NCBI GenBank assembly: GCA_965235115.1
Contig: OZ249436.1
Span: forward strand, 1,056,001-1,120,000
From: Laetmonice hystrix
Lineage: Eukaryota
DNA: 64,000 nucleotides
Direction: 5' to 3'
A program made the position numbers and the translations under genes. Under the pieces are notes generated by a model, which was given only the letters and a program-made list of their open reading frames with translations, was not told the origin of the DNA and ran no database searches. Positions 17,601 to 64,000 of the stretch are shown in pieces (the first letter of the stretch is position 1; each line of letters opens with the position of its first letter).

Positions 17601-19255
17601 CCAGTTCGCGCGGCACCGTATTGAGTGCGCAATTTGAAATTTGAGCTAATTGGAACGCTGCTATAACCACTGCCCTGTATAAATATCTTTTCATGTATAG
17701 TATGTACTAATTATGTTACAGGCACGAAAGCATGTTTCCCAAATCCATGTGAAAACAACGCGACTTGTCATTACGTGGCTGGAGACAAAGAATTCGCTTG
17801 TCAGTGCCAGACCAACTTTTTTGGAACGAGGTGTGAAATTGAATGTACGTATAATGTGAGGAGGTTCCCCTGAAACAATGTGACATGTTCGACCAACTTT
17901 TGATTTTTTTTTCGGTTTAAACGGTAAATTTTTCAGGGGTAGAATGATACGTATACTTTGAATGATAACAGACCTTCCTCTTATTATACTGTTTGTTGCT
18001 ATTTTTAGTTCTGCCAGGTCAAACGTGGACAGAGTGTGGGGTGACGTCACTAAGCGGTACCAGAGGGATTGTGACGTCACCACTCTGGCCCCTGCCTTAC
18101 CCACCCAATGTCAGATGTCAGTGGAAGGTCAAAGTCAGGGAAGGCAGAACCATTTCTCTAGAGTAAGTTAATTCCATAGCCGGAACTCGGGCTTTCTTTC
18201 TTCTAAAAATCCCAAACCACAATATAGTTACCTGGTTGATATGGGTGAAAAAGCCTATTTCGCTATATGCCTACATATCTTTAAAGGGAGCCGTAAAATT
18301 CATTTTTTCGATTTATGGCAGTCTTAGAAACATATGATTCGCATACCTTGGACTCCCAGTAACATCATGTGAGACTGTTATGGCCCAGCGACCAGTATTT
18401 AGTAAGGAAAATAATCCAAATCTCTCCCAAATACGTAGCTCAGAATTAGCGAGCGGCCCACAGGATATTTGAGTTGGCCTCGGTCGGGCGATGATGACGC
18501 GTGATCACGTGACTTCCGGGTGTGGAAGGGAATCTCCCTCTAGTCTAGCGTTGACCTAAATACCGCATGTACACCCGGAAGTCACGTGATCACGCGTCAT
18601 CATCGCCCGACCGCGGACAACTCAAATATCCTGTGGGCCGCTCGCTAATTCTGAGCTACGTATTTGCGAGAGATTTGGCATATTTTCCTTACTAAATACT
18701 GGTCGCTGGGCCATAACAGTCTCACATGATGTTACTGGGAGTCCAAGGTATGCGAATCATAATTATGTTTCTAAGACTGCCATAAATCGAAAAAATGAAT
18801 TTTACGGCTCCCTTTAACCGTTTGGTGACTATAATTGTAGGAATAAGCCTACAAAACCTAACACATAGACAGTCCCGTATAGCCATGCCGTATAGGCACT
18901 GGATCCCCGAACAAAGCTCTCCGCCTTCGGCGCTCAATGAGTTCCACCCCACTCTCCTAAGATCCCACCACAAACAAACCTGGCTACGGGCCTGATTGAA
19001 GCCTAACAACCATTTAATTTGAATGTAGCCTTAAGACTCTAGATCTTGAAGGAGGGAAGGACTGCCTCCACGACTCACTTGTAATCTATGATGGCGCGAA
19101 TGTAACGTCCCCAATACTCCGGGGGCCGATGTGTGGAACTGCCAACCAGACATCAGCCGACATCACGTCAGTATTCTCACCCATTCTCAGTGAGACAGAG
19201 AGAGTTAGAGAGAGGGAAGAAAAATCAAATAGAGAGAGAGGGAGAGAGAGAGAGA

Positions 19256-19305
<50 letters not shown>

Positions 19306-22300
19306 GAGTGTGTGAGAGGGAGAGGGAGAGAGGAAATAGTGAGAGAGATAGAGAGGGAAAGAGAGAGGAGAGAGCGAGAGAGGGCAACTTCATTAATGAT
19401 AGTTATAGATAGGGAGAAATGATATTATTGTAGGTGAGCTACTTTCTCCTGGCTTCTCCTGACCATAGACCAGAATGGAGAGGTCATAACGGAACACTAT
19501 TACTGTTTGCTTTCACTGGCGTCTATCCCCTAACAATCATATTATTGTATACCGTACATTTACATATAGACAGATGATATACACCCGGACAAACCAAGTC
19601 ACACTGCAGATGATAACAGACCGGTCGATTACAGGAAATGGCTTCATGATTGGCTTCAGTGAAGATGGTAAATAGCTTTGACAAAATAATCAGACCTCGT
19701 ACATAAGTGGGAGATTCAGGGTACATGACAATAGTATTTGTGATATATCTAAAAAAACACATGATAAAGATGAAGCGTGCCTAGAACGCTCGCCGTTCTT
19801 TGGTCCCAGACATCGAATAGCGTCCCAACATGTCCCAATATCTAGGACATTTGAAAAACGTTGGAGTATATTCACGATTTGAGGTTTGTTTTTGGACAGA
19901 ATGTGGGACAGGAAGTGGAGACTCTGGGTGCGGGACAGCCAAGACGTTCACCTCGAACTGTGGACGAATATCAATCCAGGACACTCCGAGATTGACAGAT
20001 TGTTCCTGGTCAATCACAGTCCAGCAAGGTCACTCCATCAACCTGACCTTTGCCGATTTCCGAATTGAAGATACAGGTTAGCGAACAACTACATGCTGTC
20101 GACATATCCTGTGCCCGACTTAAGCCAACCATCTTTAACTATGTATATCTAATTCTAAATGTAGGCATAGATAATGACAAGACAGAGAGGATATATCGGG
20201 TACCGTAGGCAAAAAAAAACAACAAAAAACCCTGGAACATTCTTTTCCTGACTAAAGGGCGGATTCCACATAAAAGATCAGCCGTCCGATTGTGTCAGCC
20301 GAATTTCCATCGGTCGGCTAAAGATCGGATGGGTCGCAAGCCGACCAAATTTCAGCCGAACGTCGATTCCACATAATCCTTGCTGGCCGTCCGATTTCTC
20401 AGCCGAATGTCACTTGGTTTGAATGGTGCTTATTGGTCATTTTTCAAATTCAATATTTATTTAAAGAAAGGAAATGTAGCACTGCCATATGTTTCTTCTG
20501 CCACTGAAAGTTGGCCAAATTTCAATTTTTGCACGCGCGCTCGATCACATGTGATTATAAACGTCTGGAAGACTAGAATTCATGAGAGGGTTAAGGCGGG
20601 CTCACACAAAGCAGACCGGCAGATTTGGTGATCGGGTGACAAAATCGGCCGATCGGGTGAGATTGGAATCGGTCGGCTGGTACAACAATCTGTTGAGATT
20701 CATGGCCCACACTGCCCCGATTGCCATAGGATCGCCAGATTGTCGGCCCACACATGGCCAATTTTGGCGGAGCGGGCCTTTTTACCTGTTTTTACTCATT
20801 AGAAGATGAAGAAAGACGGCAACGCAGGAGGAGACTTTTTGGGGGGAGACCCGGTTACAGAGAAAGAAAAGAGTTCAAATACGATGGTGAAACTGTACCG
20901 GGAAATCATGAATACAAATATAGAAACATTTTTGCCGGTAGTTAGATCCTACCCGAACTTTCTAAATGTATCGGCTAGCCTTAGCATATTTATGGTCCCT
21001 ATTTCTACTGACACATGTAGATCCAAACACTCCAATCAAGTTTTTTGTCGTAGTGTAGGTGCTAGAATTATTACATGCTGCTGGTATAGGCCTACTATAG
21101 CCTTAATAATAATATGATTAACCAAATGACTCCTAGTGACTGGAACAATTATGATGAGGTTTACAGTATTCAAACATTTCACAATATTTAGAGTAATAAA
21201 GGGCCATTCCATGTCAAATCACCCAATGGGAAAAATGACCCCACCCCCTTCGAAACTTGCTATATATGCTTAGTGTGGCTAATGTGGGGCAGTTACTTGA
21301 GTGATGTGGGGCAGTGACGTGAATGATGTGGGGCAGTGACTTGAGTGATGTGGGGCAGTGACATGAGTGATGTGAAGTAGCTAGTGACTTGAGTGATGTG
21401 GGGCAGTGACATGAGTGATGTGGGGCAGTGACGTGAGTGATGTGGGGAGTGACGTGAGTGATGTGGGGCAGTGACGTGAGTGATGTGGGGCAGAGACTTG
21501 AGTGATGTGGGGAGTGACGTGAGTGATGTGGGGCAGTGACTTTAGTGATGTGGGGCAGTGACTTGAGTGATGTGGGGCAGTGACGTGAGTGATGTGAAGT
21601 AGCTAGTGACTTGAGTGATATGGGGCAGTGACGTGAGTGATGTGGGGAGTGACGTGAGTGATGTGGGGAGTGACTTGAGTGATGTGGGGCAGTGACATGA
21701 GTGATGTGGGGCAGTGACTTGAGTGATGTGGGGCAGTGACGTGAGTGATGTGGGGCAGTGACTTTAGTGATGTGGGGCAGTGACTTGAGTGATGTGGGGC
21801 AGTGACGTGAGTGATGTGAAGTAGCTAGTGACTTGAGTGATATGGGGCAGTGACGTGAGTGATGTGGGGAGTGACGTGAGTGATGTGGGGCAGTGACGTG
21901 AGTGATGTGGGCAGAGACTTGAGTGATGTGGAGCAGTGACATGAGAGATGTGGGGCAGTGACTTGAGTGATGTGGGGCAGTGACGTGAGTGATGTGGGGA
22001 GTGACGTGAGTGATGTGGGGCAGTGACGTGAGTGATGCGGGGCAGTGACTTGAGTGATGTGGGGCAGTGACGTGAGTGATGCGGGGCAGTGACTTGAGTG
22101 ATGTGGGGCAGTGACGTGAGTGATGTGGGGCAGTGACTTGAGTGATGTGGGGCAGTGACGTGAGTGATGTGGGGCAGTGACGTGAGTGATGTGGGGCAGT
22201 GACATGACAGATGTGGGGCAGTGACTTGAGTGATGTGGGGCAGTGACTTTAGTGATGTGGGGCAGAGACTTGAGTGATGTGGGGCAGTGACTTGAGTGAT

Positions 22301-25300
22301 GTGGGGCAGTGACGTGAGTGATGTGGGGGTGGTGACGTGAGTGATGTGGGGAGTGACGTGAGTGATGTGGGGCAGTGACGTGAGTGATGCGGGGCAGTGA
22401 CTTGAGTGATGTGGGGCAGTGACGTGAGTGATGCGGGGCAGTGACTTGAGTGATGTGGGGCAGTGACGTGAGTGATGTGGGGCAGTGACTTGAGTGATGT
22501 GGGGCAGTGACGTGAGTGATGTGGGGCAGTGACGTGAGTGATGTGGGGCAGTGACATGACAGATGTGGGGCAGTGACTTGAGTGATGTGGGGAGTGACGT
22601 GAGTGATGTGGGGCAGTGACTTGAGTGATGTGGGGCAGTGACGTGAGTGATGTGGGGGTGGTGACGTGAGTGATGTGGGGAGTGACTTGAGTGATGTGGG
22701 GAGTGACGTGAGTGATGTGGGGCAGTGACGTGAGTGATGTGGGGAGTGACGTGAGTGATGTGGGGCAGTGACGTGAGTGATGTGGGGAAGTGACGTTAGT
22801 GATGTGGGGAGTGACGTGAGTGATGTGGGGAGTGACGTGAGTGATGTGGGGCAGTGACGTGAGTGATGTGGGGAGTGACTTGAGTGATGTGGGAAGTGAC
22901 GTGAGTGATGTGGGGAGTGACGTGAGTGACGTAAGTGCTACCACTGCTACCACTTTCAGAATACATTAATCTGATGGCAATCTGCTCGTCACAATCGAGC
23001 AATTGCGCATTCGCGCATATTTTTGGTATAATCGGCTGATGGCCTATACTGGACAGATTTTTACTCCCGATTGCATAGAAGACCCCCGTGGCCCCCGCCT
23101 GGCCACGTGTAGAAAAAATGATAGAGGTCTAATGTTCAATTCTGCATCAGATACTATAGAGTCTCTGGACATTCTCAGCAGATTCATGAATCGTCGCCGT
23201 AAATATCAAAACATTTTAATATTGTCGGCGAAAGCAAAAATGGCATCCGATCACCAGACCGATTCCCCTCAGACAGCCGATCATCGATTCCACATAAACG
23301 ATTTCTCAGCCGAATTCGGCTGGGCCAAAACTTTGTTCGCCGATCGCAAATCGCCTGGAAAATCGGCTCTGTGGAATCAATTTATCATGATCGGCGAGAG
23401 GAAAATGGCACGCCGATCACCAGCCGAATTCGGCTGAGACAGCCGATCATCGACTCCACATAAACGATTTCTCAGCCGAATTCGGCGGGGCCAAAATTTT
23501 GTTCGCCGATCGCAAATCGCCTGGAAAATCGGCTATGTGGATTCCAGCCTTAAGTAAAGGAAAGAGTGTTCCATTTTTTGGGCCCACCCGATATATAAAC
23601 AACGTATATAGGCCTCTGCTAAGTTAAGACATTGTTAACTCAGGGGTGGATCCAACTGGGGTTGGGGGGGGGGGGGTGTTGTATGTTTGCAACCTTTTAA
23701 GCAGAAAAAAGAGAAATTACTTCGTAAGGGGGGGGGGGGACATACCCAACCCCCCTCCCGATCCGCCCCTGTAATTGCGTACTATCCATATCCACATCTA
23801 TTTACCCTGGGATGTAAAAAGTGCTAGATGTTGACAAGATGTTGGTAAAATCCTTTCAGGTATGGGATGTGAGAATGGCGGCCTGGCGGTGTATGACGGG
23901 CGGTATTCTCCTCCAACATCGATCAGGAAATACTGCGGGCTGCAGTTCCCGTGGTCAATACAACTGGAAACCAATACCATTCTGATCCGACTGGAAAACG
24001 TCACGTGGCAGACCGGGGATCATGTCATGGCGATGATATTTGAATCACTAGGTAGATGATCTGGGGGAAACTCGTTGTTGGTATGTCTCTGCATACGTGT
24101 GCATGCTGTAGATGTGACTAGGCCCCTATTGCTTTGAATAAATGCGGCAAATCGGTCTCGTAAACCGGAACTACCTTCTCATACTCCCGGAAACGGAAGA
24201 GGCGTCCTTACTGATAAGTGGACAAGGATGGGATATTCCATCTATTCAGGTAAACTGTAAAATTCTGATGTAAAATGGAAATGTAGAGAGTCAATACTTA
24301 TTTCAGCATCAGCCGATTGGATAAAGCGCGCCCCCGTACAGGAAGTAGAGGGCGCCAGTGGTTTTATATCGTCTGCTGAGTCCCCGGATGTTGTGGAGAC
24401 ACGTGAGGCAGTCTCCCAGCAGTGGATTGTTAGAGTTCCGGTTGGACACAAAGTCTCCCTACAGTGGAGTTTCAGCGCCACTAACAACGCCGCCATCCAG
24501 GTATACTCGAGCGCAATGATGATAAAATATCTAAGTTTGAGCAAATCTACGACCTCCAGGCTTAAAATTAGTTGCTAGCCAACGGGCGTAAATAGGGACT
24601 TTACTAGCCCATCATACAGTTTGGATTAGGCCCTACACATTAGGAGGTTAGGACCTGTTTTATCCCCCCCCCCCTTTGAAACGGAAAAGATTAGCTTATA
24701 CTCGAGCAGATATTCATTCTATGGTATGGTTATATTCCACGACCACGGGTGGTCTTCTCCGCATCTACAGGGTCTTATGGTCTACTACATTTTTTGTCGA
24801 TGAGTTAAACATTTTTCATGGCAGGTCATTTTACAGATTGGTGTCAATTCCTACAAGGTATAACTACTAGAGCAGAGGTGTCGGATGTGGGTATACACTA
24901 GGCCTACTTGCGGTACCTTTCCCGCCTGTAGATTTGTCAAAACAATAAGATCTCATCTTCCTGAAAAAGCTCAATAATAACAAGTTTAATTCTTGACGCG
25001 AAGAGATCAGAAATTTACCATGTCCAGCCGCTTTCCGATAGCTTTCAGATGTCCATTCCAAGTGGTCTGCGGAAATTCTGATATTGCGACCCTTACTGCT
25101 ACTTGTGGCTGATGTACGCATGCAATTGTAGTCGATTTCCAATTGACATGCAGATATACGATGGTTCGTCGCCAACATCAGATATTATTGTCAGTGAGGG
25201 AGTGCACACACTTGGGCGGAAGTTAAATCTGACAGGACATATCCTGTCTACCGGGTTTCAAGTGTTCATTGTCGCCACACGATCAAAGGATGGTGGGAAA

Positions 25301-28300
25301 TATAACTTCAGCACGGCGTTCACTGCGTCAGGTAAGCACGTTCTCCGTGACTTGGCATTGCTGCCTGGTGCAGCGAGGATCGACTGTGTAAAAGTTGACT
25401 ATGGTTTCAACGCCTGTCTCATGTTAGGCCTCATGTAGGTCTACCAATATTGACATCGTTACTCCTGGGCCCAGTTTTGTAAACGTAAATCAAGCAGTAT
25501 CTCGTGCTTACAATACAAACACGCTGAAAATATAGGCTAGACTTGCCACAACTGACTGTGAAAATGTTTACAAGTTTGATTTGCCACTTGATAAAATCCA
25601 CTTGATATATTGGGAACAACAACTGAAGAGACTGTCTGTTGATAAGCCTTTGGTTGGTATCTTGACTACAACCTTGTGGTAAGTACGGCTAATGTGTGTT
25701 ATTCAATAGTCACATACTTTTGGAGAGACCTTTGCAAGTTTATATTTTCAGCGTGCGCGCATTGTAAGCTTGAGATACTACTGAAACTTGCTTTTAAAAA
25801 CCGGGCCCTGGAACTTCTATTTCCGAACATGTTATGAAGTCTTGCTACATTCAAATTCCGTCTTTCCGACCCATGTATTACCAGTTCGTTCAGTCTTTCT
25901 GACCTATGTATTACCAGTTCGTTCAGTCTTTCCGACCCATGTATTACCAGTTCGTTCAGCCTTTCTGTCCCATGTATTACCAGTTCGTTCAGCCTTTCCG
26001 ACCCATGTATTACCAGTTCGTTCAGTCTTTCCGACCCATGTATTACCAGTTCGTTCAGTCTTTCCGACCTATGTATTACCAGTTCGTTCAGTCTTTCCGA
26101 CCTATGTATTACCAGTTCGTTCAGTCTTTCCGACCTATGTATTACCAGTTCGTTCAGCCTTTCCGTCCCATGTATTACCAGTTCGTTTAGTCTTTCCGAC
26201 CCATGTATTACCAGTTCGTTCAGTCTTTCCGACCCATGTATTACCAGTTCGTTCCAGTAGGCATATTTCTGTTAAAATCTTTAAAAAATGCGGGCATGTG
26301 TAAAGTTAACATCCGCTTCCTGGATGTCGTGCGCCGATTCAGATTTCTAGGATCCGATTCGGCATGCACTGGGGTTCGCATATCGGCTAGGCCTAGGCAT
26401 ATACATACATAATTGTCATTAGGGGCTGTATAATTGTAATTAGGGGCTGCCAATTCTATAATAACTGGTCCCTTCATCAGGACATGAACCTTACACACCT
26501 GTTTGATGTTTCCGTGCAATTTCTCAAAGAAAAGAAATTGGCGAGGGCCTTAGTCTAAATTCAGTACCAGTTCAGGACAATGTACTTTGAGAAACTCTTC
26601 ATACTGAACCCGGCAACTGGTAATGTATCTCTGAGGGAAACAGGTATTGTAATGTACTTCACGGTTATCATCATCTTGTCAGAATGGACCCCAGAACGTT
26701 CAGGCTGCTACCGCCCGGCCTTTTACGACATGACGTCATATGACGGTACAGAAAACAACGTTGTGACGCGGCTCGAGCCAGTGGTCGTCATGGTGTCCGG
26801 CCAACGAACCAATCAGGATCAACCTATGTATGACGCAGGTAACAGCAGTGGCTACACTTGGTTTGACCGAGATACTTCTGTGCATGTTCAGGGCAGGTGT
26901 AGGGGTCTTTCCAGCAATAAACATGTCTGTTTTAATCCATTGAGGTATTTTATAGGCCCTTCAGTTGAATCACGTTTCTTGCTGCAGGACTGTACTGTAA
27001 GTGGTTGATACGTGGGGAGGTGGGAAGCCAGTTAGTGATGAACTTCCTCGACTTCGTTGTTTACCCTCAAGACCCAACCTGCAGCTCCGACGGTCTAGTC
27101 ATCCATGCTGGTAATTCGACCGACGACCCCATGTTTGGTATGTAATGATGTAGGTTTTGATTTAGTCTAATGACTTATGTTTTACTTTGCACTGAGAAAT
27201 AATTGACGTGACATGTTTCTGCCGGGTTTAGTTCATAGTTTCCTGTTCAGAAACACATCAAGGGTTAAACGTGCTAGAAATGTTAAGGAGTTAAGTTATA
27301 TTTTTTAATCAGAAACCTTGTTTAGTTATGTTAACTTCCTTTGTTTTGTTAGGACCGTTCTGCGGATCCTCGCCGTCGGTTCGGCAGCAGACGGTGACGT
27401 CAGACTCGGGAGAATTCCTTGTAGTTTTCTACTCGGACACCACACAACATACCCGGGTCGGAGGGATCGTACGGGCCATCGTCACCGTCAACGGTAAGCT
27501 TTCTGCATGTACACCCCCCCCCCCCATCTAAGTGACACTTGTATACCAGACTGAACCTCTGGAGGGGACATAACTCCCACCTCTACAATACTTGGTTACA
27601 AAGTAGACGTCAGTAACGGAGGTGAAGGTCCGAGTTGAGCGACAGAGAATGACAGTTGCCGTTTAGACCAGCTGGGAGAGGTGAAGGCCTGAGTTGAGCG
27701 TGTGGTGTACCTGTTTCAGAGAATGACAGTTGCCGTTTTGACCAGCTGGGAGAGGTGCAGGTCCTAGTTGAGCGTGTGGTGTACCTGTTTCAGAGAATGA
27801 CAGTTGTCGTTTTGACCAGCTGGGAGAGGTGAAGGCCTGAGTTGAGCGTGTGGTGTACCTGTTTCAGAGAATGACAGTTGTCGTTTTAACCAGCTGGGAG
27901 AGGGGAAAGTCCTAGTTGAGTGTGTGGTGTACCTGTTTCAGAGAATGACAGTTGCCGTTTTGACCAGCTGGGAGAGGTGAAGCTCCGAGTTGAGCGTGTG
28001 GTGTACCTGTTTCAGAGAATGACAGTTGTCGTTTTGACCAGCTGGGAGAGGTGAAGCTCCGAGTTGAGCGTGTGGTGTACCTGTTTCAGAGAATGACAGT
28101 TGCCGTTTGACCAGCTGAGAGAGGTGAAGGCCCGAGTTGAGTGTGTGGTGTACCTGTTTCAGAGAATGACAGTTGCCGTTTTGACCAGCTGGGCGAGGTG
28201 AAGACGAAGACACTGTTGTCCTCGTGTGGTGTCATCCTGTCGCCATTCTTCCCGGCTGAGGTGGGCGTCGGTCTGTGGACGTGGGTTATCGAAGGTCCAG

Positions 28301-31300
28301 ACGCCAACCAAGGGTCCTTCTTCACCGTCAATCTGTACTATGTCAGGGGCCCGGCACACACGGGGTGCTCCGAATACTTCAAGAGTATGTCACACACAGT
28401 TCTCACTATAATTACCCTGTACTTGCCGATATCTTACTGATTTACACAATATGATCGATGACATAGGATGGTATTGGTTTAGTAGTTGTAAGTCGTATAG
28501 GGCCTATGGAAATGACGGTATGCATCAGGCAATAGTTATATTAATTCCATCGGAAAATGAATGGTAGACATTTTCTCAAATTAATTGTGAAAGTCTTCTC
28601 TAAAGACAACCATTTTGTTCATGCTTCGATACGATACGATATTTAAGTGTTTTTAAAACTATACCAAAGAACTTGGATGATTTGCTTGGCGACCACCTCA
28701 TTGCTGAGTCTGTGTTACCGTCTTATGAGGACTTTGCGACTTTTCTCCAGTAAACGAAATTTCCAAGGATTCGAGCGTCCTCAAACAGCCTCAGGCTGAT
28801 GTTCTGACGCTCTGTGCTCACACAGATCTGTTTCTACCTACAAAAGCAATCAAGGTAGGAAACCATTCCTTGGCTTGGAAATCTGGATTTAACTAGTGTA
28901 CCGGAACGTGAGGATGAGCTTTTACTAAATTCTAGTTTTCACTTCAGTAATTAGTGCATCAATGTGTAGATTGTGTTACCGTAAGATTGTACCTGGACTA
29001 TTTCGACCCGACCCCAGCGGCTCCGCTATATCTTACAGTTGCCGCCCTACCAGAAGCTAGGGATCGAACTTAATACCTTGGAGAGTTTGTTCAGCCAGCG
29101 GTGGGAGTTCAAACTTTCCTACATGTCTGAGAGGATGTCCGTACCTCCATATATGGAGAGTAAGTAATCCAAGATTGGATCGGAATGGGTGGTTTTAACT
29201 GACGAACTGGGGAGGGGGTACTACGAGGGAAGTCTATTAACGGGGCTTTGAAAACGGCGTAAAACATGTCGACTTTCTTTTGGGACACCCTGTACGCGTG
29301 TATTTCGAAAAGTTGAGGCGCGAAAAGTTCCGACAGTTATGCCCACCTCAGAATATACGACACGAAGTACACTAGCTGTACTTATAGCTCCCGATTATGA
29401 TCGCGTCCTGTAGTCTGCAAAGTTGGGAGGTTTTGAATATTGAAGAGTTGGTACACCATATAAAAGAAAGTTGAGATACTTTGTATATTTGACAATGGTG
29501 ACCACAGCATTCAACCTATTTTCAGGTACTAACCGATTTTGGGTTTGTGATTGCAGGTGAGCTTGAGACGTGCCCTGTGGACAGCCCGCCGTACCAGTAT
29601 TACCGCGGCCATTGTTACAGGTATATCGCTCACGTACTCAGACATTTTGAGACGAACGAAGGCAGGTTTGATTACACGGAAACTTGGCAGAAGTCGGCAG
29701 ATCAGTGTGTCAGGGAGAATGGTACCCTACTCACAATCAAAGACGAGGACGAGGCGTACTTTGTTAAGGCAGGTATTTATTATATACAACGTAATTAGGG
29801 GGCGACCATTTGGGGGGGGGGGGGCTGGAGGTTTTCTTGGGAATATATTTTTTATTTCAATTTCTTTTCAATTTCTTTTCAACACTCATGGCAACATTTT
29901 ATTTATTTCACATGAGACTAATTTATTTCGGGCATGGTCAGGGAGAATTTATTTAATTCACCAATTTTCCACCAGAAATTATTTATTTCCAAAAACACCC
30001 AGCCCCCCCCCCCCCCCTAAATATCTAATGGTCGCCCCCTGATATCTCAATATCTCACAGACCGAGCACACGTTCCCACCATAGTTTATTAATAGATGAC
30101 TCGGTAATCCGTATGTTCCACAATCTGAACACATTTTAATGGGAACCAAACTGTTCGGATAAACGAGGTCTGACAATACGTTTCCAGTATATGCTCTCAC
30201 ACGGTTGGTTTTGGCACCCGGCTACCAGTTACCACGGAAACCACAGGTTAACATTTATTGGCCTTCACAACCGGGGTGAGACCTACTCCTGGCTGGATGG
30301 AACACACGTGGCGTGAGTTACAGCACTCTCAATCAGTAATCATCTTGGTTAATCTGATCAGGTTTCTCAACGGACAGGGATCACAAAGCAATTCCACACT
30401 CTTTCAAATCGAAATTCCCAAAGAATATCAATCTCTCTTAACGTATTTCTCAAATGTCGAATGAGAGAAATAATGCACTTTCTAGAATCACTTGGTCACT
30501 TACCAAAGTGAGATTTCCGTTGAGGAATTACAAGTTCATTGATAACATTGGTTTACACGGGCCACCGTAAGTAGTATCTGGAAATGACGGTTAGTGTCAG
30601 GCGTGTTACCAATGTGTTGAGATTTACAAGTTCATTGATAACATTGTTTACACGGCCACCGTAAGTAGTATCTGGAAATGACAGTTAGTGTCAGGCGTGT
30701 TACCAATGTGTTGAGATTTACAAGTTCATTGATAACATTGGTTTACACGGGCCACTGTAAGTAGTATCTGGAAATGACAGTTAGTGTCAGGCGTGTTAAT
30801 CAAGGATCGCGAGAGAGAAATGAAAAATTTGTACCATCTGTTGGTCAAAACTTTCAAAAACCTAAAACTACCCGGCAGCAAGGAGCTTACTCTGTTAATA
30901 TGTGGAATAATTTGTTGTGAAGTTACACGGACTGGTATTGGCCGCGGCCGGCCATGGAGACAGGGCCGGTGGTGGAGGACACAGACCCCCGAACTGTCGA
31001 CTTGCTCCATGTGAAGACGGCCCAACCCACCGCCGACTCAGGGTCACTGTGTACAGTGGCCCTGCCCAACTCCCCACACAACTCACTCAACTGGGCCAAG
31101 ATCCCATGTGACTACCCCTTCCAGCAAGCAGGGTCAGTCTGTAAACGGCCTGCCATCCACAGCAATGACAACGGTATGTGATTGTGGACAGTAGATGCAA
31201 CACCGCAAGATCACAGGGAACTTGGGACTCATTTTATTAATTCAAAATAATCTAATAATTTAAACATGTCTTTTATCATTTAAAACTCTGGAATGCGAAG

Positions 31301-34300
31301 TCCAGTTGTTTCTTTAGTTTCTCTCGCGATAAATATTAATATTTTCATTATCTGTCATACATAGGCTTAAATCGGCTTAATTGTATATGTTATTAATTTA
31401 TATTTATTGTGGGGATATAGTATTCTATTAAGAGTAGTTGGCCGGACATGATCAGTCCAAATGATTATGGTACTTGTGGCATGCTCAGATTAAACCATTA
31501 TAACAATTTGCTGGTTTTAGACAGTTCAGTAATGGATGCCGAGATGTTGGTGCAATCTCTTCGAGTCATGGAATCCCAAGGTTACTCAGGTCGGTCGTCA
31601 GAAAGTGAACAATTTAACTTACATACATACAACTTATACTTAAACAATTCCGGTTATCTCCCGTTTGTAACATTCTGCCAATCATGGTGATCATAACATC
31701 GATGTTCCTTGTTACACGCGTTATATTTGTGTCCCGTGAGGACTTGGATGTGTTCTCTGTACACAGCCTGTCCCAGTGGCTGTACTTTACACGTGTTATA
31801 TTTGTGTCCCGTGACGACTTGGATGTGTTCTCTGTACACAGCCTGTCCCAGTGGCTGTACTTTACACGTGTTATATTTGTGTCCCGTGACGACTTGGATG
31901 TGTTCTCTGTACACAGCCTGTCCCAGTGGCTGTACTTTACACGTGTTATATTTGTGTCCCGTGACGACTTGGATGTGTTCTCTGTACACAGCCTGTCCCA
32001 GTGGCTGTACTTTACACGTGTTATATTTGTGTCCCGTGACGACTTGGATGTGTTCTCTGTACACAGCCTGTCCCAGTGGCTGTACTTTACACGTGTTATA
32101 TTTGTGTCCCGTGACGACTTGGATGTGTTCTCTGTACACAGCCTGTCCCAGTGGCTGTACTTTACACGTGTTATATTTGTGTCCCGTGACGACTTGGATG
32201 TGTTCTCTGTACACAGCCTGTCCCAGTGGCTGTACTTTACACGTGTTATATTTGTGTCCCGTGACGACTTGGATGTGTTCTCTGTACACAGCCTGTCCCA
32301 GTGGCTGTACTTTACACGTGTTATATTTGTGTCCCGTGACGACTTGGATGTGTTCTCTGTACACAGCCTGTCCCAGTGGCTGTACTTTACACGTGTTATA
32401 TTTGTGTCCCGTGACGACTTGGATGTGTTCTCTGTACACAGCCTGTCCCAGTGGCTGTACTTTACACGTGTTATATTTGTGTCCCGTGACGACTTGGATG
32501 TGTTCTCTGTACACAGCCTGTCCCAGTGGCTGTACTTTACACGTGTTATATTTGTGTCCCGTTACGACTTGGATGTGTTCTCTGTACACAGCCTGTCCCA
32601 GTGGCTGTACTTTACACGTGTTATATTTGTGTCCCGTTACGACTTGGATGTGTTCTCTGTACACAGCCTGTCCCAGTGGCTGGCTGACGGTTGGCACACG
32701 GTGTTTCCAACTTTATACCGATTACACCCGTGTAACAAACACTACCCATAACCCGGCACAAAACATGGTGTGGACTGACGCTAAGTCAATATGTCACCGA
32801 CTTCAAGGTCGTCCAGCTCGGCTAGATAATGACACGTTCAGTAAGATTAAACAGTTCCTCTACATCTGGAACCATCGCCTTGAACACGGAGACATCTGGC
32901 TGGACAGAGAGGCAGACCGCTGCTCTATTATACATGTTAGTATAATCTACTGGGTTAGTATAATCTACTGGGGATACATTAACATGGAAGAGCAGGACCA
33001 GAAAACGGCAAATACCCAATCTGGTGGTTGAATAGGGTAGACCTAATATTTTACTATTCACATTATAGGCAATGCCAGATAATGCTGTTGAGTATTAACT
33101 AGGCCTCAGAATGTATCATATAGAATATTCACATTATAGGCAATGCCAGATAACGCTGTTGAGTATTAACTAGGCCTCAGAATGTATCATATAGAATATT
33201 CACATTATAGGCAATGCCAGATAACGCTGTTGAGTATTAACTAGGCCTCAGCATGTATCATATAGAATATTCCTAGTGATTTACTTATTCCAAAGATATT
33301 TTTGTTTCAGATCTCCAAGAAACACCGTCTTGATGAACTGGTGGACTACAGTTTGTCTTCAGATTGGTGTCATATCGTCAATAATTGGTGCCATATCGTC
33401 AATAATAACCCTCACATTTACAATGTATTATGTGTGACGGAACCGACAAGTACGTTAACGTGCCAGAAGTTTAATCAAATATTAGGCCTACCGTTCCTTA
33501 TGTATAGGCATTGTGTTTTCATACACAAAATCTGTATATGAATATATAATACAATGTTACATTTAATCTTTCTGAGTACATGATGAAAGATGACATTTTG
33601 TTTACAGGAGTTCGTGAAACGTGTAGCTCGGACGAATTCCAGTGTGTGAACAAAGTGTGCGTGTCGATCGACCACGTCTGTGACGGCACCAACGATTGTT
33701 TTGACGGCAGTGACGAGAAATCCTGCGGTAGGTGTCACTACCTGTCACTAGGTGTCACTAGCTATCACCACCGACTTGTCACCCTTCATTCTGGGACATT
33801 CGGGTGTTAGCGTTATATATAATTATATATCCGTCAGCTAAAGAGTACGGGCCGGGATACTTTCCTTGTGAGGACAAGGCCAGATGTATACCAATATCTC
33901 TGTATTGTTGTAGAGTGCGGGCCGGGATACTTTCCGTGTGAGGACAAGGCCAGATGTATACCAATATCTCTGTATTGTTGTAGACTGCGGGCCGGGATAC
34001 TTTCCGTGTGGGGACAAGGCCAGATGTATACCAATATCTCTGTATTGTTGTAGACTGTGGGCCGGGATACTTTCCGTGTGAGGACAAGGCCAGATGTATA
34101 CCAATATCTCTGTATTGTTGTAGAGTGCGGGCCGGGATACTTTCCGTGTGAGGACAAGGCCAGATGTATACCAATATCTCTGTATTGTTGTAGAGTGCGG
34201 GCTGGGATACTTTCCGTGTGAGGACAAGGCCAGATGTATACCAATATCTCTGTATTGTTGTAGACTGCGGGCCGGGATACTTTCCGTGTGGGGACAAGGC

Positions 34301-37300
34301 CAGATGTATACCAATATCTCTGTATTGTTGTAGACTGTGGGCCGGGATACTTTCCGTGTGAGGACAAGGCCAGATGTATACCAATATCTCTGTATTGTTG
34401 TAGACTGTGGGCCGGGATACTTTCCGTGTGAGGACAAGGCCAGATGTATACCAATATCTCTGTATTGTTGTAGAGTGCGGGCCGGGATACTTTCCGTGTG
34501 AGGACAAGGCCAGATGTATACCAATATCTCTGTATTGTTGTAGAGTGCGGGCCGGGATACTTTCCGTGTGAGGACAAGGCCAGATGTATACCAATATCTC
34601 TGTATTGTTGTAGAGTGCGGGCCGGGATACTTTCCGTGTGAGGACAAGGCCAGATGTATACCAATATCTCTGTATTGTTGTAGACTGCGGGCCGGGATAC
34701 TTTCCGTGTGAGGACAAGGCCAGATGTATACCAATATCTCTGTATTGTTGTAGACTGCGGGCCGGGATACTTTCTGTGTGAGGACAAGGCCAGATGTATA
34801 CCAATATCTCTGTATTGTTGTAGAGTGCGGGCCGGGATACTTTCCGTGTGAGGACAAGGCCAGATGTATACCAATATCTCTGTATTGTTGTAGACTGCGG
34901 GCCGGGATACTTTCCGTGTGAGGACAAGGCCAGATGTATACCAATATCTCTGTATTGTTGTAGACTGCGGGCCGGGATACTTTCCGTGTGAGGACAAGGC
35001 CAGATGTATACCAATATCTCTGTATTGTTGTAGAGTGCGGGCCGGGATACTTTCCGTGTGAGGACAAGGCCAGGTGTATACCAATATCTCTGTATTGTTG
35101 TAGAGTGCGGGCCGGGATACTTTCCGTGTGGGGACAAGGCCAGATGTATACCAATATCTCTGTATTGTGACTTCAAGAGGGATTGTCACGACGGTTCGGA
35201 CGAAAATAACTGCAGTAAGAGTTTTTCTTTGTAAAAAACAGCCTGGGAGACAACATGGAAAGATTGCCTTTCTTAGTTACAAAAAGAGTCATTACGTTTT
35301 CAGTAATTTTCAGACCTACTACTTTCCCTTCTCTTATAATAATCATTTCTGCATTGCTGAACACAAAAGATCATAACTTTCTTTGGTTCAGACATTTTTG
35401 CCTTTTTCCTCTGTAGTTATGGAGACGTGTACAGCAGCGCAGTTCCGATGTGATAATGGCGAGTGTATTGACAAAGAAAAGAGTTGTGACTTTAACCGGG
35501 ATTGTGTGGATGGCAGTGACGAATCACCCAGTTTATGCGGTAAATCTCGAAACATTCTCCACCATTTACAGTGTGATAATACAATCAACACACTTTTCTT
35601 AACATCTTTTTACAACCCACAAAAGCATTTCCAATCGGGCATTTGCTACAACGTCTGAATAAAACATGCTATAGCTTTTGTATAAAACAAAAGATGTCCG
35701 TGTTTGATTGTGATTGGCGTGGCACTGGCAGTGGGTCAGTGCCACGCCAATCACAAAACAAAAGATGCCCGTGTTTGATTGTGATTGGCGTGGCACTGGC
35801 AGTGGGTCAGTGCCACGCCAATCACAAAACAAAAGATGTTGTCCATTGTTGATTGTGATGGAGTGGCACTGGCAGTGGGTCAGTGCCACGCCAATCACAA
35901 AACAAAAGATGTTGTCCGTTGTTGATTGTGATGGAGTGGCACTGGCAGTGGGTCAGTGCCACGCCAATCACAAAACAAAAGATGTTGTCCGTTGTTGATT
36001 GTGATTGGCGTGGCACTGGCAGTGGGTCAGTGCCACGCCAATCACAAAACAAAAGATGTTGTCCGTTGTTGATTGTGATGGAGTGGTACTGGCAGTGGGT
36101 CAGTGCCACACCAATCACAAAACAAAAGATGTTGTCCGTTGTTGATTGTGATTGGCGTGGTACTGGCAGTGGGTCAGTGCCACGCCAATCACAAAACAAA
36201 AGATGTTGTCCGTTGTTGATTGTGATGGAGTGGCACTGGCAGTGGGTCAGTGCCACGCCAATCACAAAACAAAAGATGTGGTCCGTTGTTGATTGTGATG
36301 GAGTGACACTGGCAGTGGGTCAGTGCCACGCCAATCACAAAACAAAAGATGTGGTCCGTTGTTGATTGTGATGGAGTGGTACTGGCAGTGGGTCAGTGCC
36401 ACGCCAATCACAAAACAAAAGATGTTGTCCGTTGTTGATTGTGATGGAGTGGTACTGGCAGTGGGTCAGTGCCACGCCAATCACAAAACAAAAGATGTTG
36501 TCCGTTGTTGATTGTGATGGGGTGACACTGGCAGTGGGTCAGTGCCGGGGATTCCAGTGTTACTCAGGTCGATGTCTCCGGGACAAACTCCGTCATGACC
36601 TCGTCTCTGACTGCCCCGGGCTGCAGCGAGAGGATGAGGAGCAAGGATCAGGTAGGCAGAAACTCTAACCTTTACTCCTACAGCTTCTGTCAAGATAAAT
36701 ATAGCCCCACATAGCCAAACGTTTCCATAATCAGTAGCCGATGTTCTGAGGGGTACCGTGCTGTGTAGGCCTAGACAAATTCCCACAGTAATATGGGGGG
36801 TGTTTCATAAACCGGTGTCGTTAGTCGCACGACTAACTACAGTGTCGCACGATGCTGTCGTGTTTCATAATATCACTGTAGTGTCGCACGATAGAAACAA
36901 CTACCGATGGGTTTACTGTAGTTACTTTCTGTTTCAAAAAGAAATCGTACGACTAACTACAGGAATCGTGCGACAGTATTATGCCCCTGATCCACCGGTG
37001 GCGATTGGGCTTCGTGATGGGTTGGCGACATGTTCGTGACATCTTCGCGACAGCCCGAGCATCTAAAAATTGCTCGGCAATCGCGAAACACAATTTCGGT
37101 GGATCAGTTTTGGAGACGGATTGGTGACAGCTTCGCGACACACCTGGCTTTGTGACAGCTTCGCGACAGGTGTCGCCAATATCAAACAAGTTTGATATTC
37201 GCGACTGGCAACGGGCGAGGGTGTTGTTGTCGCAACCGGTGGATCAGGTATGTGATTTTCGCGGCACCTTGGCGCGTGCTTCGAGACAGCTTGGCGACTT

Positions 37301-40300
37301 ACTGAATCATGTCGCCAAGCTGTCTCAACAAAATGACAACTACGGCTTCGCGATCGAGCATCTCCATCGCGAAGCTGGTACGAACGTGTCGCCACCGGTG
37401 GATCAGGGCCATTACTGTGGTAACCGGCGACACCCCATGGGGGGGGGGGGGGGGTGTCGTAGGATTTTAAAAAGAGGCGCAGGGCCACTTTTTGAAACCC
37501 ATTATGTGGGTTCAAACTTCAAACTTCAACATGGCGGAAGGAGGGCATGTGGTAGAAGTGAGAAGAGATAAGGCGCCGAAAATATACCACCCGCGTCTGG
37601 ACCCAATCGGCCACTTCCCGGTCCATCAGTTTCTAAGACGATATATAGAATTGATCGGCAATCTGCAGTGGAGCTTTGTGATGCATATGACAGAGGAGGG
37701 TAATGCACCACTGCACAGGACCCCAGAGGTGGAGGGGTTAACTGCCATTCAACGAATAAGTATATATTGTTTAATGTAAAAGGAAAGGTATGTAATGAAT
37801 TTATAACTTTAACATATCTGATAAATACCTATAGTGTTTCCAGCTGTTTGGCATGTAAGATTTATTAAAAATTTTAACATAATTATTTTAATGTTGGATA
37901 TCAGGAAAAAAATTAAATAAACTCTGGCCTCCTGAACTGTGTCACGACGCCACCCCTGCACACATATAATTCTTGTCTTGCTGTAAAATAATGACTATAG
38001 TACTAATCAACAATGATGAATTAAATATAAAAAAAAAAATTATCGGCTGGGATTCGAACCCCAGACTTCTGCCATGAAGCGCCTACACTCTACTACTGAG
38101 CCAACCATACACAGTGATAACTTAGGCCGATGTATTAGGCCTTTGTCATATCATTGTGTTATAGCAGGCATACGTCATAGGTCACGTGACCTAAAAATAT
38201 GTCTATTGGTGTCGAATAGTAACTATGGGTCCAAGTTTACAAGTTATAGCCTTGAGAAAATATAGATGACCTCCTTATGACTTTAGAAGTCACGTGACCT
38301 AAAAAATAATGTATAAATGAAGGAGGATATGACTTTCTACCAGTGTTTACTAGGAACTATGGTTTTATCTTCAACCATTTACAAGTTACACCCATAAGAA
38401 AAGAAAGATCATATCCTTATAAGGTCTTAGGTCATGTGGCCTAAAAAATGGTGTCAAAGGAAAGAGCATATGCGACTTCCTATTAGCATTTAATAGTAAC
38501 TGTGGCTCTACGTTCAACCAGTCACAAGTTATCGCCCTGTGAATATATAGATTATCTCCTGATGATGTCATAAGTCACGTGACCTAAAAAATAATGGTGC
38601 CAAACAGAAGAGCATATATGACTTCCTATTAGTGTTCAGTAGTAACTATGACCCCAAGTTCAACCATTTACAAGTTATAGACCTCTGAATGTATAGATCA
38701 TGTCCTGATGACGTCATAGGTCACGTGACCTAAAAAATAATGGTGTATAATGAAAGAGCATATATGACTTCCTATACATATCTATAGTAAGTTTGACTCT
38801 ATCTTGCACCTTTGTTGAGTTATAGCCCTATATTCAGACCCATGTTCGAGGTCACGTGACTTCCTCAATACCATCGTTACGTTACATGTCGTGGAATCGT
38901 GCGACACTACAACTATATTTTTGACGACAGCACCTGCGACGTTTACAAGTGTCGGACGACAAAATCGTCGATTTATGTACTAACTTCATTTGTTGTGGAC
39001 GATATTTTTTATGAAACGAAATGAACGACAGGTCGGGCGAAGATCGTCCAGCCAGTGTCGTCAACGTCCGACAATGACGACTAACGACACCAGTTTATGA
39101 AACACCCCCATGGTCAAGTAATGGTAAGTTTTGCATTTCCGTCATCAATTAACTGTGGAGATCAACTCGTCAATAAGTATTTTTGGTATGCCCACTTAGA
39201 CGCAGTGCCCGTGCTGGGGTGTCCGACGCCCGACTCGGTGCAGTGTATGGAGGGTCACAGCCAGTGTTTTACCCGAGCGTCTACTTGTGTGTACGACACT
39301 CAGGTGGTAGACGCTAGTTCCGGTTACAGCGTCCAGATGTCGTGTCGTAACGGCTTCCACCTCCGCTCTCACTGTGGTACGACTTCCGACCTTACGACCC
39401 CGGGCACTGTAATGATCCTTAGGCCCTGTTCATACAGAAAGCGACGCGACGCACCGCGACCCTGGGCACTGTAATGGGACTTACACTAATACGATTATTT
39501 CCATCATTAGATCACAGATTTCTCCGGTAACAAGTAGAGTGCAGGCGATGTAAAAGGTTGTTTTGTATTCTGACAACACTTGGATGGATGATGTCTCATG
39601 CCAGAAATTGACAATCAACCTTGGAATTAATCCAGCGTTACTTTTATCTAAAGGTTCTGTTGATTGCCCGGGAATGTTCCACTGCCCAGGCTCCTACTGT
39701 ATACCGTTTGGTAAGGTTTGTGATGGCCACGTGGACTGTCCAATGGCGGAGGATGAGAGGAGTTGTGACAATTACACCTGTCCAGGTAAGTTCTAACTGT
39801 CCCTTGACACTGTTCTCCCGAGTTCCAAAGCCAGACCTGACCTAAAAAGATATTTTGACAAAAAGAATTGTTCATATCCATAATTGAATGTCGTTAAATC
39901 TCACACGAAATACAATTAGTTTCTGTTCGATTAATACACTTTTCTCGTTGAATCCGTTTTTCTCCAAGAAAATACCAAATAAAAATAATTACCAGCTCAC
40001 AACAAGGTAAGACGCGGTCTGTCATGAGAACATGATATTGCACTTCGTAATAAACATGAATCTCTAAATGATTGAAGATCCGATCAAGACTCAGTTGAGG
40101 ATGTAGACATTATAAATAGCTCCTATCTTATTTGGATGTCAGGTCTGTTCCGCTGTAAAGATGAACCTCACTGCATTTCCCACGACAAGGTTTGTGACGG
40201 GGAAATCCACTGCAAGATACATGGATCAGACGAGAAATATTGCACTGAAAAGGGTACGTGGATTTTAATTGCTGACGTAGTCAACATTTTCTAACGTTAT

Positions 40301-43300
40301 TATAATTATTTAGACCTAACCTTTTTCTTTCTGTCGGCAGATACATTGTGCAGCCAAGGTTGTAGATGTCGAGGTAATATGATATCTTGTGTCCACGCCA
40401 ACCTTACACATCTACGGACACCGAACACCTCGGCAACAAGACCAGTACGGGCCCTCTTACTCCAGCACAATCAGCTCAATGTAACACGACAAACATTCGC
40501 TGGAATGCATTGGCTTGGACGACTCGATCTCAGCTACAATAACATAACATACCTCGAACCAGGAGTCTTCAAGGACCTACGCAATTTGTTTGAACTCATC
40601 CTTAGTTACAATGAACTGGTGTCAATTGATCAGGGTGTTTTCACCGGGCTAAGGTCGTTAAGGATTCTTAATCTCCATGGTAATAAACTGGTTAAATTAC
40701 AGGCCGATGACCTTTCTGAACTTGTCAACCTGCAGCATTTGATCATCACCGATAACGACTTGAGTAAGGTTTCCGAGAACGCTTTCCTTCCCCTGACGAA
40801 CCTAGAAGAAATCAATACGGATGCCTACAAGTTTTGTTGCATTGCTAAACACGTCGACGTTTGTACTCCTGAACCTGATGAGTTTTCTTCCTGCGAGGAC
40901 CTTATGGCCAATAAGGCCCTCCAGGTGAGCATATGGGTTCTGGGGCTGTGTGCCTTTGTAGGCAATGCCTTCGTCATCATTTGGCGGATAGTCACAGATC
41001 GTTCAAAGGTTTCTTCTTTCTTTATAATCAACCTGGGACTATCAGATTTCTTGATGGGTCTGTACATGTTGATCATTGCTGCGGCTGATGTCCACTACCG
41101 CGGGACGTATATAGTAAACGCCGAGTACTGGCGGTCAAGCGTTGGCTGTCAGATTGCTGGTATTCTGGCCATGGTCTCCAGTGAAGTGTCTGTGTTCATG
41201 CTGACTGCTATAACGGCTGACCGTATGTTGAACTTCTTGATGCCACTGAAGGCGGGCAGTTTCCGGATGAAACACGCCCGTTATGTGGCGGGTGTGGGCT
41301 GGGGTGTGGGCATCATGCTCAGTGTCCTGCCTGCACTCGGAATCCCCTACTTCGGAGACGCCTTTTTTGGTCGCACAGGTACGTGCTCCTTGTGCTCTTT
41401 ACATCAGAAAACCCTTCTGGGTGTCTCACTGTCATCGACATGTAGTCCATGTTCTATCAACCTTTTTATTTAGTGTTATAAACAATAACCTTCTAGTATA
41501 CTTGGTTCAAACATGTTTGTGTGCATGCCTGTATCCAGGTGTGTGTCTCCCTTTTCACCTGAGTAACGAACGCCTGCCTGGGTGGGAATACTCGGTGTTC
41601 ATCTTCCTGGTCGTCAACTTCATCTCCTTCGTCTTCATCTTCGTCGGGTAAGGAAACTTGTCCCATACTCACTGAGTAACTCCTCGTTCTGTTCTAATCT
41701 ACATGCTTTGACCCTAGTGCTATCTTTGGCAGATACGTTGCGATATTTTGGATCGTTTCCAAGTCCTCCCGACAGGTTCAGTCAACCTCGGCTTTGGATG
41801 AGTACTCGCTGGCCAAAAAGATGGCGTTGATCGTAGGAACGGATTTACTCTGTTGGGTACGTGATTTCTAACGTATTCCATGGCAGAAGAAAATCTCAGA
41901 GGTCATTCTTTGACCTTCATATATATACACATCATTCTTCCACTTCAAGCAGGAATAAAAAGAAACTGCGTTTTTAAAAGTAGATAGAACCGGTTGATGA
42001 CAAGGCCCGTACTACGGAAGCCGAGAATGCTGAAATCAATGAAATAAAATAAAACACGCTTTAATACATCGCGCGAAAAATAAAATCTCGCGAGATTTTT
42101 TTTTCTCATGAGTATTATTTATCGCGCGATTTTTTAAAGACGTGTTTTATTTTATTTCATTGATTTCAATGGTAGCATTCTCGGCTTCCGTACTACGCCG
42201 TCACTTGTATTGTATTTATGCCATTGGCAGGTTCCTATCATCTTGATTGGATTCTCAGCGCTAGGTGGCGCCACTATTCCTCCCCAAGTGGCCGCTTGGA
42301 TCGCTGTGTTCGTGCTGCCCCTCAACTCGGCCGTCAACCCGATCCTCTACACCTTCTCGGCCATAGACTGTCAATGGTGGGTCCATTATTAAACATAATG
42401 TAGGCTACTACTAGTCGAATGACATCTAGCTTGCACCGGGGGATTTTTTTTCTGATTGAGCCCCTTTTTCACAGTTTCCCTCCCTTTCGAAGTCCGCGAT
42501 CATTCTGTCCTTGGAACCGTAAAGGTCTATATACACTGGCGCGATTTTTGCCACGAACTCGAGTTCGTCCGAAGTTCGTAAGGTTTTGCGAATTCGTAGG
42601 AAAGATTGCAGAGGTGGGAGCCAAGTCCTTAAGTGTTCGTACGATTGCGTGGAAATTCGCAAGCAGCAATGTGAATGGAGTTCGTTAGCAAAAGTCGAAT
42701 TCGTACGATCAACGACGAACGTCGAAAATTTCATCCTTAAGCTGTATCCTAACTGGACGCGTGCGACGCGAGCGACGCGCGCGTTTTTTTTAGAAGTAAT
42801 GGAAATGAATTGAGCCATCTGCACTGGCCGCGCGCGACGCGCGCGTCATTTTTTGTGACGCGCGCGTCGCGACACAGATAGGACTGGTTCTATTTTTGTC
42901 GCGCTACGCGCGCGACAAAAGACATCTTGACTAATCAGAAGTGAGATCTACGACCTTGAACTTTGTTCAAGAGCGTCAAGAGACTAATATACACCTATAC
43001 ACGCCTATACCCTACTCATTTTTAATTAATTTTAACACTGACGGTGTATCTCAGGGAAGCCCCGAGCTATTATGTAGGCCTATACCTCTAGAACTCTCAT
43101 TCAAGAGCATGAGCTTTAATTCGTAATGCAAACAATTATGAATTGTTTTCCTGTGCCCCCTCCCTCTTTAGGCTTTAGTGATACCCTGGACCCCCAATTG
43201 ATAGACGCGCATTTATACAGGTCTATATGTTCCCAGGCCCGTAGCCTATACGCAGACGTATCACGCGCATCTGGTGAAGATAGAAAAAAGATCGCGTCGC

Positions 43301-43636: not shown

Positions 43637-43854
43637 CAATCGAGCCAAGAATATTGTGACGGATCGAACTCCAGTCCTCACCCTCAGACATGTCTGACTT
43701 TCGATATCCAGAGGTCCAAACTGACCGGGTGCTGCAGGATTAAATCACTACCCTATCTTTTCACTATATCATCCTAGGATCAGAACACTCTAGAGTGCTC
43801 TAGTCATCTTTTCAGAACACTCTGGAGTGATTTTATACTGGGTAGAAATTGGAT

Positions 43855-63877: not shown

Positions 63878-64000
63878 CTGGAAGAAAGGTGTCTGGGATA
63901 AGTACAAACCGACTCCCGCCAATTAATACTTCATTCTGAACATTCAATAAGGAGTCTTTGAATGCGCTCCTCGTCACCTTTACAACTTTACTACAAAGCT

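Follow-up and report, generated by a model that had tools for sequence, protein, structure and literature searches.

Minisatellites whose units span an exon-intron boundary, known as mirages, have been described in amphioxus, in the Adh3 gene and the globin genes BflGb6 and BflGb9 (PMC3087553), to which a second source adds PGBD5 and troponin C (PMC3902484). Across the loci reported there, unit lengths range from 10 to 160 bp; an intron-gain model has been proposed for these repeats, and reverse transcription PCR (RT-PCR) of BflGb6 suggested normal splicing (PMC3087553). In human genes, variable number tandem repeats (VNTRs) spanning the donor are listed for intron 7 of F7 (IVS7, 37 bp), 6-16, CBS, LMNB2 and PDGF (PMC1557585), and internal tandem repeats have been reported to form or modify introns in human segmental duplications (PMC2812944). 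Our literature search retrieved mirages from amphioxus only and no report from annelids, a weak negative since subscription papers and supplements were poorly covered; an account of earthworm metallothionein mentions intronic minisatellites and, as far as that source could be consulted, describes no boundary-spanning units (PMC12783039). Here we analyze a 64,000-nucleotide stretch of the annelid Laetmonice hystrix (assembly GCA_965235115.1, contig OZ249436.1, positions 1,056,001 to 1,120,000, forward strand; hereafter the window), in which a single gene, encoding a putative GRL101-like G protein-coupled receptor (GPCR) and called copy A, contains four arrays that repeat its own 3' splice sites (acceptors). 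The class is already known, and what is new here is a dense and dissected example of it.

The initial annotation of this stretch had proposed that four arrays each repeat a 3' splice site plus the start of the following exon, and this description holds. Tandem Repeats Finder (TRF) placed the arrays across the acceptors of exons 16, 22, 25 and 27 (Table 1) with unit matches of 93-99%, and the AG with its exon start recurs 8, 13, 19 and 12 times, which yields 48 decoy AGs in copy A. The exonic part of the unit, put beforehand at ~12-65 nt, was measured by comparing array ends with exon starts and agrees, and in the 35-exon model the last unit alone runs into the complete exon in each of the four arrays, also as first described. 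That all units fall within 70-75 bp is true of these arrays, but the range is not exclusive to them, as there is an intronic 71-bp array at 33055 and an acceptor duplicate of ~59 bp in the inverted paralogue of the gene (copy B). With the arrays, the introns upstream of the four exons reach 669-1,493 nt instead of 116-593 nt. The arrays are members of the mirage minisatellite class known from amphioxus, and five features of that class were found: head-to-tail units of minisatellite size, units that span a boundary, an authentic unit at the edge, copy-number instability, seen here between paralogues (19 vs 18 copies in array 3 and 12 vs 16 in array 4), and concerted evolution, in which variant counts across units show inner units to be alike and boundary units to be excluded.

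Table 1. Positions of the arrays, their host gene and related features (position 1 is the first base of the window).
Feature	Position	Strand	TRF call (period x copies)	Description
Array 1	27620..28203	+	27643-28203 (74 bp x 7.6)	unit of 74 bp, 41 nt of it from exon 16; 7 decoys; the working AG precedes 28163
Array 2	31712..32682	+	31712-32682 (75 bp x 12.9)	unit of 75 bp, 16 nt of it from exon 22; match 99%; 12 decoys
Array 3	33842..35168	+	33842-35168 (70 bp x 19.0)	70-bp unit made of 65 nt of exon 25 plus 5 nt; 18 decoys
Array 4	35684..36546	+	35684-36546 (73 bp x 11.8)	unit of 71-74 bp, 12 nt of it from exon 27; 11 decoys
Putative relic acceptor	33813..33843	+		CAG before 33838, score 7.1; AAG before 33844, score -3.2
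Copy A, GRL101-like GPCR gene	14672..43638	+		35 exons, 2,057 aa
Exon 16	28163..28384	+		222 nt, phase 1-1; skipping keeps the frame
Exon 22	32667..32935	+		269 nt, phase 1-0, no in-frame skipping
Exon 25	35104..35214	+		111 nt, phase 1-1, intact LDLa module (PF00057, 45.3 bits)
Exon 27	36535..36651	+		117 nt, phase 1-1, LDLa-like
Copy B, inverted paralogue	52383..64000	-		window contains exons 23-35; 871 aa without a stop
Array 3 in copy B	61199..63378	-		18 copies; a 928-bp insertion interrupts one
Array 4 in copy B	59469..60626	-		16 copies, terminal-unit variant as in copy A
Decayed exon 29 acceptor duplicate (fifth case)	56409..56545	-		copy B; ~59 nt plus partial copy

That these repeats were created by the assembly has a negligible probability. 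Logan contigs assembled from the reads of three public runs (one sample, one study) were inspected over the region 28130-31790, and the joint at which the sequence goes back by 74 bp (array 1) is present in all three runs and the 75-bp joint (array 2) in one of them. Arrays 1 and 2 are therefore not assembly artefacts. Some room for an artefact is left by the fact that this check covers arrays 1 and 2, not 3 and 4, and that the runs may derive from the assembly's own sample; on the other hand, the unit variants are patterned, and the arrays of copy B differ from those of copy A in copy number and by an insertion. Contig depth was not taken as copy number. No exon-to-exon joint was present over 28130-31790 in the three runs, a result uninformative on AG usage because the contigs cover introns. 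Separately, the contig depth of exon 16 (28192-28370) is ~2-3 times that of nearby introns and one run contains a joint that skips 28416-29030, which is consistent with additional paralogues or haplotypes outside the window.

The arrays are probably mirage minisatellites that arose by neutral or nearly neutral duplications of the end-joining type and survive since the productive mRNA uses the last acceptor. Their origin would lie in separate tandem duplications of 60-75 bp through microhomology or template-switch repair, because of what the junctions contain. The unit of array 1 is bounded by two copies of a 9-nt word, one intronic and one exonic, in what appears to be a clean microhomology join; array 2, with near-identical units, has a 4-nt insertion and array 3 a 3-nt slip duplicate; in array 4 the 12 exon bases are followed by an 11-nt snap-back insertion that copies the upstream intron in reverse complement, a natural 7-bp inverted repeat having served as primer. 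These junctions fit the features described for synthesis-dependent microhomology-mediated end joining (SD-MMEJ), although short matches at junctions of this type occur by chance in 18-54% of cases according to the same source (PMC2943611). Growth of the arrays, in part visible in the units, would proceed by slippage or unequal exchange, altering copy number and homogenising inner units while edge units keep private variants, such as the terminal-unit variant of array 4 (1/12 units in copy A, 1/16 in copy B). Survival would follow from the fact that duplication of an acceptor leaves an intact exon downstream, the remaining copies becoming intron.

Array 3 differs in that its unit is almost entirely exonic. 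The five non-exonic bases are the slip duplicate plus AG, and the array appears to be an exon-start duplication that created a new acceptor. The upstream context of the working acceptor is copied from the coding sequence of exon 25 and scores 2.9 (all splice-site scores are rough, being derived from a small matrix of 30 sites of the same gene). Just before the first unit of the array, 110-116 nt from the exon 24 donor, lies a relic acceptor (Table 1), and in this first unit the codon for the first LDLa Cys is replaced by Tyr in both A and B, a variant private to the unit. The relic site is probably the ancestral acceptor, with its exon start since intronised; loss of an older flank is also possible. 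One residue precedes the first LDLa Cys of exon 25 in Lamellibrachia and three or four in hemichordates, which makes E-C or A-K-E-C candidates for the ancestral start. The array would thus have added no intron, the old donor being kept and the acceptor lying ~1.26 kb further downstream. Intron gain of the Rogers type, in which a duplicated AG/GT provides a new donor and a new acceptor, was not found for any array, as the gene model has no added intron. A variant that exchanges G and E occurs in exon 25 of copy A, in 2/18 decoys of A and in 2/17 of B, while exon 25 of B has the majority base. Because A's exon shares this variant with some decoys and B's does not, exchange between decoys and exon is suggested, and as the variant changes an amino acid, the decoys of array 3 may feed amino-acid changes into a coding exon.

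How the last AG would be selected is the central question for this account. The units provide decoy acceptors, as claimed initially: their scores match or exceed that of the working AG, which is top-scoring in no array, and sequence strength was rejected as the selector for this reason. In array 1, the pyrimidine tract is gone from the first decoy, which scores 0.3, the other decoys scoring 5.8-6.4 and the working site 5.8; in array 2, all 13 AGs score 3.3. Pairing of splice sites across the exon is a known element of splice-site choice, and transcripts produced in error are cleared by nonsense-mediated decay (NMD). The lengthening of the intron by the array would favor such cross-exon pairing and with it the last AG. 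Exon definition, which the initial annotation had put forward as the resolver, is reasonable here, 45/48 decoy units being without a GT that scores >1.5 (the weakest real donor scores 2.8). Micro-exons at the level of the unit were considered and rejected: a GT of 3.9-5.1 is present in 3/48 decoy units, yet only ~30-35 nt then remain to the next AG. Acceptors more than ~20 nt apart are described as using separate branch points (PMC9225289), and at a spacing of 70-75 nt there is room for a branch point and a pyrimidine tract in every unit, so that the arrays do not break the rule by which the first AG downstream of a branch point is taken; the strict YTRAY motif is found at about half of the acceptors only. 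If a decoy of arrays 1, 3 or 4 were used, a premature stop would result in 36/36 cases, and these transcripts would be degraded. Further buffers may be that skipping of exon 16, 25 or 27 preserves the frame, that array 2 stays in frame at any AG and that the decoys of array 4 form hairpins; by hand arithmetic, the probability of finding all five cases buffered in some way is ~0.14.

These hairpins were examined by folding predictions. In array 4, arms of up to 20 bp flank the decoy AG, perfect over 20 bp in the first unit, and three decoys fold with z-scores of -4.9 to -8.5 as compared with -0.6 for the working site, by which the decoys are predicted to lie in fold-back hairpins. RNA structure as selector of the last AG is only partly supported for array 4. 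For arrays 1-3 it was rejected, there being no step in accessibility and z-scores of the working sites from -0.8 to -0.1.

Several results weigh against neutral duplication with use of the last acceptor, those on splicing being given here and those on placement below. The relic site of array 3 scores 7.1 and the working acceptor 2.9, with a median of 5.1 for 30 other acceptors; the working site of array 4 scores 0.1, below 10/11 of its own decoys, and its accessibility in copy A (0.18-0.19 vs 0.01-0.24 for the decoys in a windowed ensemble model) is only a slight gain. The penultimate decoy of arrays 3 and 4 would produce an exon of ordinary size, 181-190 nt. In human data, moreover, the upstream 3' splice site is preferred overall, a preference that a long upstream intron or exon definition is reported to lessen and not to abolish (PMC9225289). 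Use of the last AG is thus not guaranteed on this analysis, least of all in array 3. The extreme form of this concern is that the arrays impair splicing, with exon 25 or 27 left out or wrongly spliced in most transcripts and selection relaxed there in one or both gene copies. The strength and position of the relic acceptor, 110 nt from the donor, would fit this, as would exon 25 itself, where A and B differ by 2 nonsynonymous and 0 synonymous changes. However, exon 25 is a full match to LDLa at 45.3 bits, A and B do not differ in exons 24, 26 and 27, and both frames are open. Over 10 exons, with exons 23, 28 and 35 left out for want of an end-to-end alignment, A and B differ by 16 synonymous and 10 nonsynonymous changes, a ratio of nonsynonymous to synonymous rates (pN/pS) of 0.18, by which both paralogues appear to be open and under purifying selection. 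Impaired splicing is accordingly very improbable in our view.

It is also conceivable that the arrays alter receptor output, array 2 serving as an in-frame bank of acceptors and arrays 1, 3 and 4 tuning exon skipping or NMD through their copy number. All 12 decoys of array 2 preserve the frame without a stop and equal the working AG in score, and each unit would add 25 Cys-rich residues to the ectodomain of a full-length protein; exons 16, 25, 27 and 29 are symmetric; and pseudo-sites are reported to be used in the donor-side VNTRs of human 6-16 and CBS (PMC1557585). Against this, simulated acceptor duplications of 70-75 nt were in frame and stop-free in 2,429/10,080 cases, at least one in-frame array out of four being expected 67% of the time, and the in-frame state of array 2 was therefore rejected as a sign of function. 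Symmetric exons make up 19/33 internal exons of copy A anyway, and no repeat like array 2 was present at the corresponding point among six aligned homologues. An altered output is improbable as a general explanation, and an effect on isoforms would be plausible solely for array 2 or through exon skipping.

The remaining results against purely neutral duplication concern where the arrays lie. The initial annotation had proposed a repeat-generating process focused on the 5' borders of exons. In the placement test, made on copy A with arrays collapsed (22,392 bases) in a gene picked post hoc for its pattern, acceptor-spanning arrays number 4/21 at period >=10 (1.76 expected, P = 0.086), 4/11 in an intermediate set (1.21 expected, P = 0.023), 4/6 at period >=20 with >=5 copies (0.62 expected, P = 0.0012) and 4/6 at periods of 60-100 (0.80 expected, P = 0.0038). 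Donor-spanning arrays number 1/21 in the first set and 0 in the other three. Decayed self-copies with z >5 were found at 4/34 acceptors in A and 3/12 in B, one of the latter, at exon 29, being new (z = 22.5 in B and 0.7 in A, hence not in copy A), and at 0/34 and 0/12 donors; the 4/6 large arrays on acceptors and the five distinct acceptors against no donor are more than a survival filter alone would lead one to expect. In addition, four unit lengths within 6 nt have a probability of ~0.003 under a uniform 40-100 null. These figures would fit a biased birth, in which 3' splice sites are favored places for tandem duplications to arise or to amplify, for instance through a concentration of breaks or of stalled forks or polymerases there, and the duplications then survive by use of the last acceptor as above. 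However, the excess falls to P = 0.086 when all 21 arrays are counted, the gene was selected for its pattern, and the 5:0 ratio of acceptors to donors gives P ~0.06 in a two-sided sign test (hand arithmetic). Intron positions 1-30 were left out of the donor self-copy test, and a duplicate of 18 bp (32936-32972) begins at the exon 22 donor GT; when the 59-nt unit of B is included, the probability of the length agreement rises to ~0.02. The acceptor excess is real within this gene, yet post hoc and threshold-dependent, and a process focused on exon 5' borders is unsupported as originally stated. Biased birth at acceptors is, on this balance, unlikely.

We also regard as rather unlikely the fuller proposal in which such a bias is combined with a splicing-safety filter and the weaker, exon-made acceptor of array 3 has displaced a stronger ancestral one 1.26 kb upstream. 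Passing the filter could depend on units of at least the length needed to contain a branch point each, on an exon that can be left out without loss of frame, on a unit that keeps the frame or on a hairpin that masks itself. If biased birth and displacement were true, array 3 would offer a naturally occurring ladder on which exon definition could be tested in an invertebrate.

Copy A is in general rich in repeats, with 21 arrays of period >=10. Those of 94 bp (30519-30798, 2.9 copies) and 71 bp (33055) were rejected as extra mirages since they touch no modelled boundary; the unit of the former includes a consensus-like donor and matches no modelled exon. Two other short duplicates lie nearby, one of 20 bp (33729-33768) that begins 2 nt into intron 24 and one of 21 bp (33363-33406), in frame, inside exon 23.

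Copy B bears on how many cases there are. That two arrays are kept in B with other copy numbers is correct as to the arrays and their numbers (Table 1), but this is not independent retention: the array tract is ~97% identical to that of A (113/116 and 186/192 intron bases), and B's arrays therefore do not count as independent cases. Exon 23 of B (63763-63877) equals A at 61/87 aligned bases and the last exon (52383-52523) is also strongly divergent, which, set beside the identity of exons 24, 26 and 27, suggests that B may be an older paralogue in which one tract was converted recently. Exon 28 of B is ~51 nt longer at its 5' end than that of A. The insertion in array 3 of B (~62190-63117) consists of nested inverted repeats with 178-nt arms of 97% identity and 149-nt arms of 99%, and looks like a foldback or miniature inverted-repeat transposable (MITE-type) element. 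A further array in copy B, of 29 bp and ~43 copies (51102-52414), starts at the end of its last coding exon, around the stop codon.

The model of copy A was built from tblastn matches of homologues, snapped by hand to AG and GT/GC ends, and its frame is free of stops when the last AG is taken at each array. Two GC-AG introns, after exon 4 (17086/17087) and exon 19 (29768/29769), were modelled because the frame is kept and homologues are matched. The predicted protein is assigned somatomedin B, C-type lectin, EGF, CUB and LDLa domains, leucine-rich repeats (LRRs) and a seven-transmembrane domain (7TM); in Pfam searches LDLa, LRR_8 and 7tm_1 were matched by exons of the window, and CUB, lectin, EGF and somatomedin B on the homologues rather than on these exons. 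It shares 43-49% with the annelid proteins P0001-P0003 (blastp, best high-scoring segment pairs) and can be aligned to proteins of Lamellibrachia and Paralvinella, which also provide the top matches of the LRR-7TM exon (56-57%), lower ones elsewhere being named GRL101-like. LDLa repeats, LRRs and a rhodopsin-type 7TM in one protein, the combination that marks GRL101-like leucine-rich repeat-containing GPCRs, are present, and the host gene would accordingly be a GRL101-like LRR-7TM GPCR. The earlier label of lectin/CUB/LDLa receptor named domains that do occur, but was too narrow. Exon 22 falls, when aligned with the homologues, on their lectin-like region and has no Pfam match on its own, and the start of exon 27 corresponds to their three-residue Cys-Cys linker.

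Elsewhere in the window, an intronless open reading frame of 234 aa on the minus strand (11208-11912) encodes a NADAR domain (PF08719, E = 2e-28) and is possibly part of a mobile element. Another intronless frame (7485-7813, minus strand) has ~109 codons and a coiled-coil-like reading, and a single 21-bp palindromic repeat occurs in opposite orientations at 8649-8833 and 10158-10377, on either side of a pyrimidine-rich tract.

In all, four ladders of like acceptors in 70-75-nt steps within one gene offer a test bed for 3' splice-site choice in which the right site is transcribed last, the tests in the work cited having addressed the donor side, as in F7 (PMC1557585), or, in amphioxus, having used RT-PCR alone (PMC3087553). 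Array 3 indicates a route by which exon sequence may become intron and a new acceptor arise, which bears on models of intron sliding and gain. In practical terms, such arrays mislead gene prediction and the mapping of splicing from short reads.

Compared with described systems, the closest likeness is to amphioxus BflGb6, in which the 3' end of an intron and the 5' start of an exon are also repeated in tandem, with copy numbers of 6 vs 3 and concerted evolution that excludes the boundary units, comparable to what is found here (PMC3087553). In amphioxus splicing was checked by RT-PCR, whereas the present arrays are known from genomic sequence. The human VNTRs likewise reiterate identical pseudo-sites into the intron and vary in copy number, and splicing there mostly uses the site closest to the exon; they lie, however, on the donor side, where the authentic site is transcribed first, and here it comes last, after up to 18 AGs of equal or greater strength (PMC1557585). 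As in the human segmental duplications (PMC2812944) and in the Rogers duplication model (cited in PMC3087553), array 3, which lies in a gene of recent duplication, would make exon copies intronic by way of a splice site that the tandem duplication brought into use, but unlike them it adds no intron. The junctions resemble those of SD-MMEJ in their microhomology, in short insertions copied from a template and in an inverted one for which a short inverted repeat acted as primer; that mechanism is known from induced breaks in Drosophila (PMC2943611) and would act here at natural duplication junctions. Finally, unlike the amphioxus cases as far as they are described, this locus combines four separate arrays in one gene (five with copy B), all on the acceptor side, and among them are a near-wholly exonic unit whose acceptor was probably born at the junction, a palindromic unit and a fully in-frame array.

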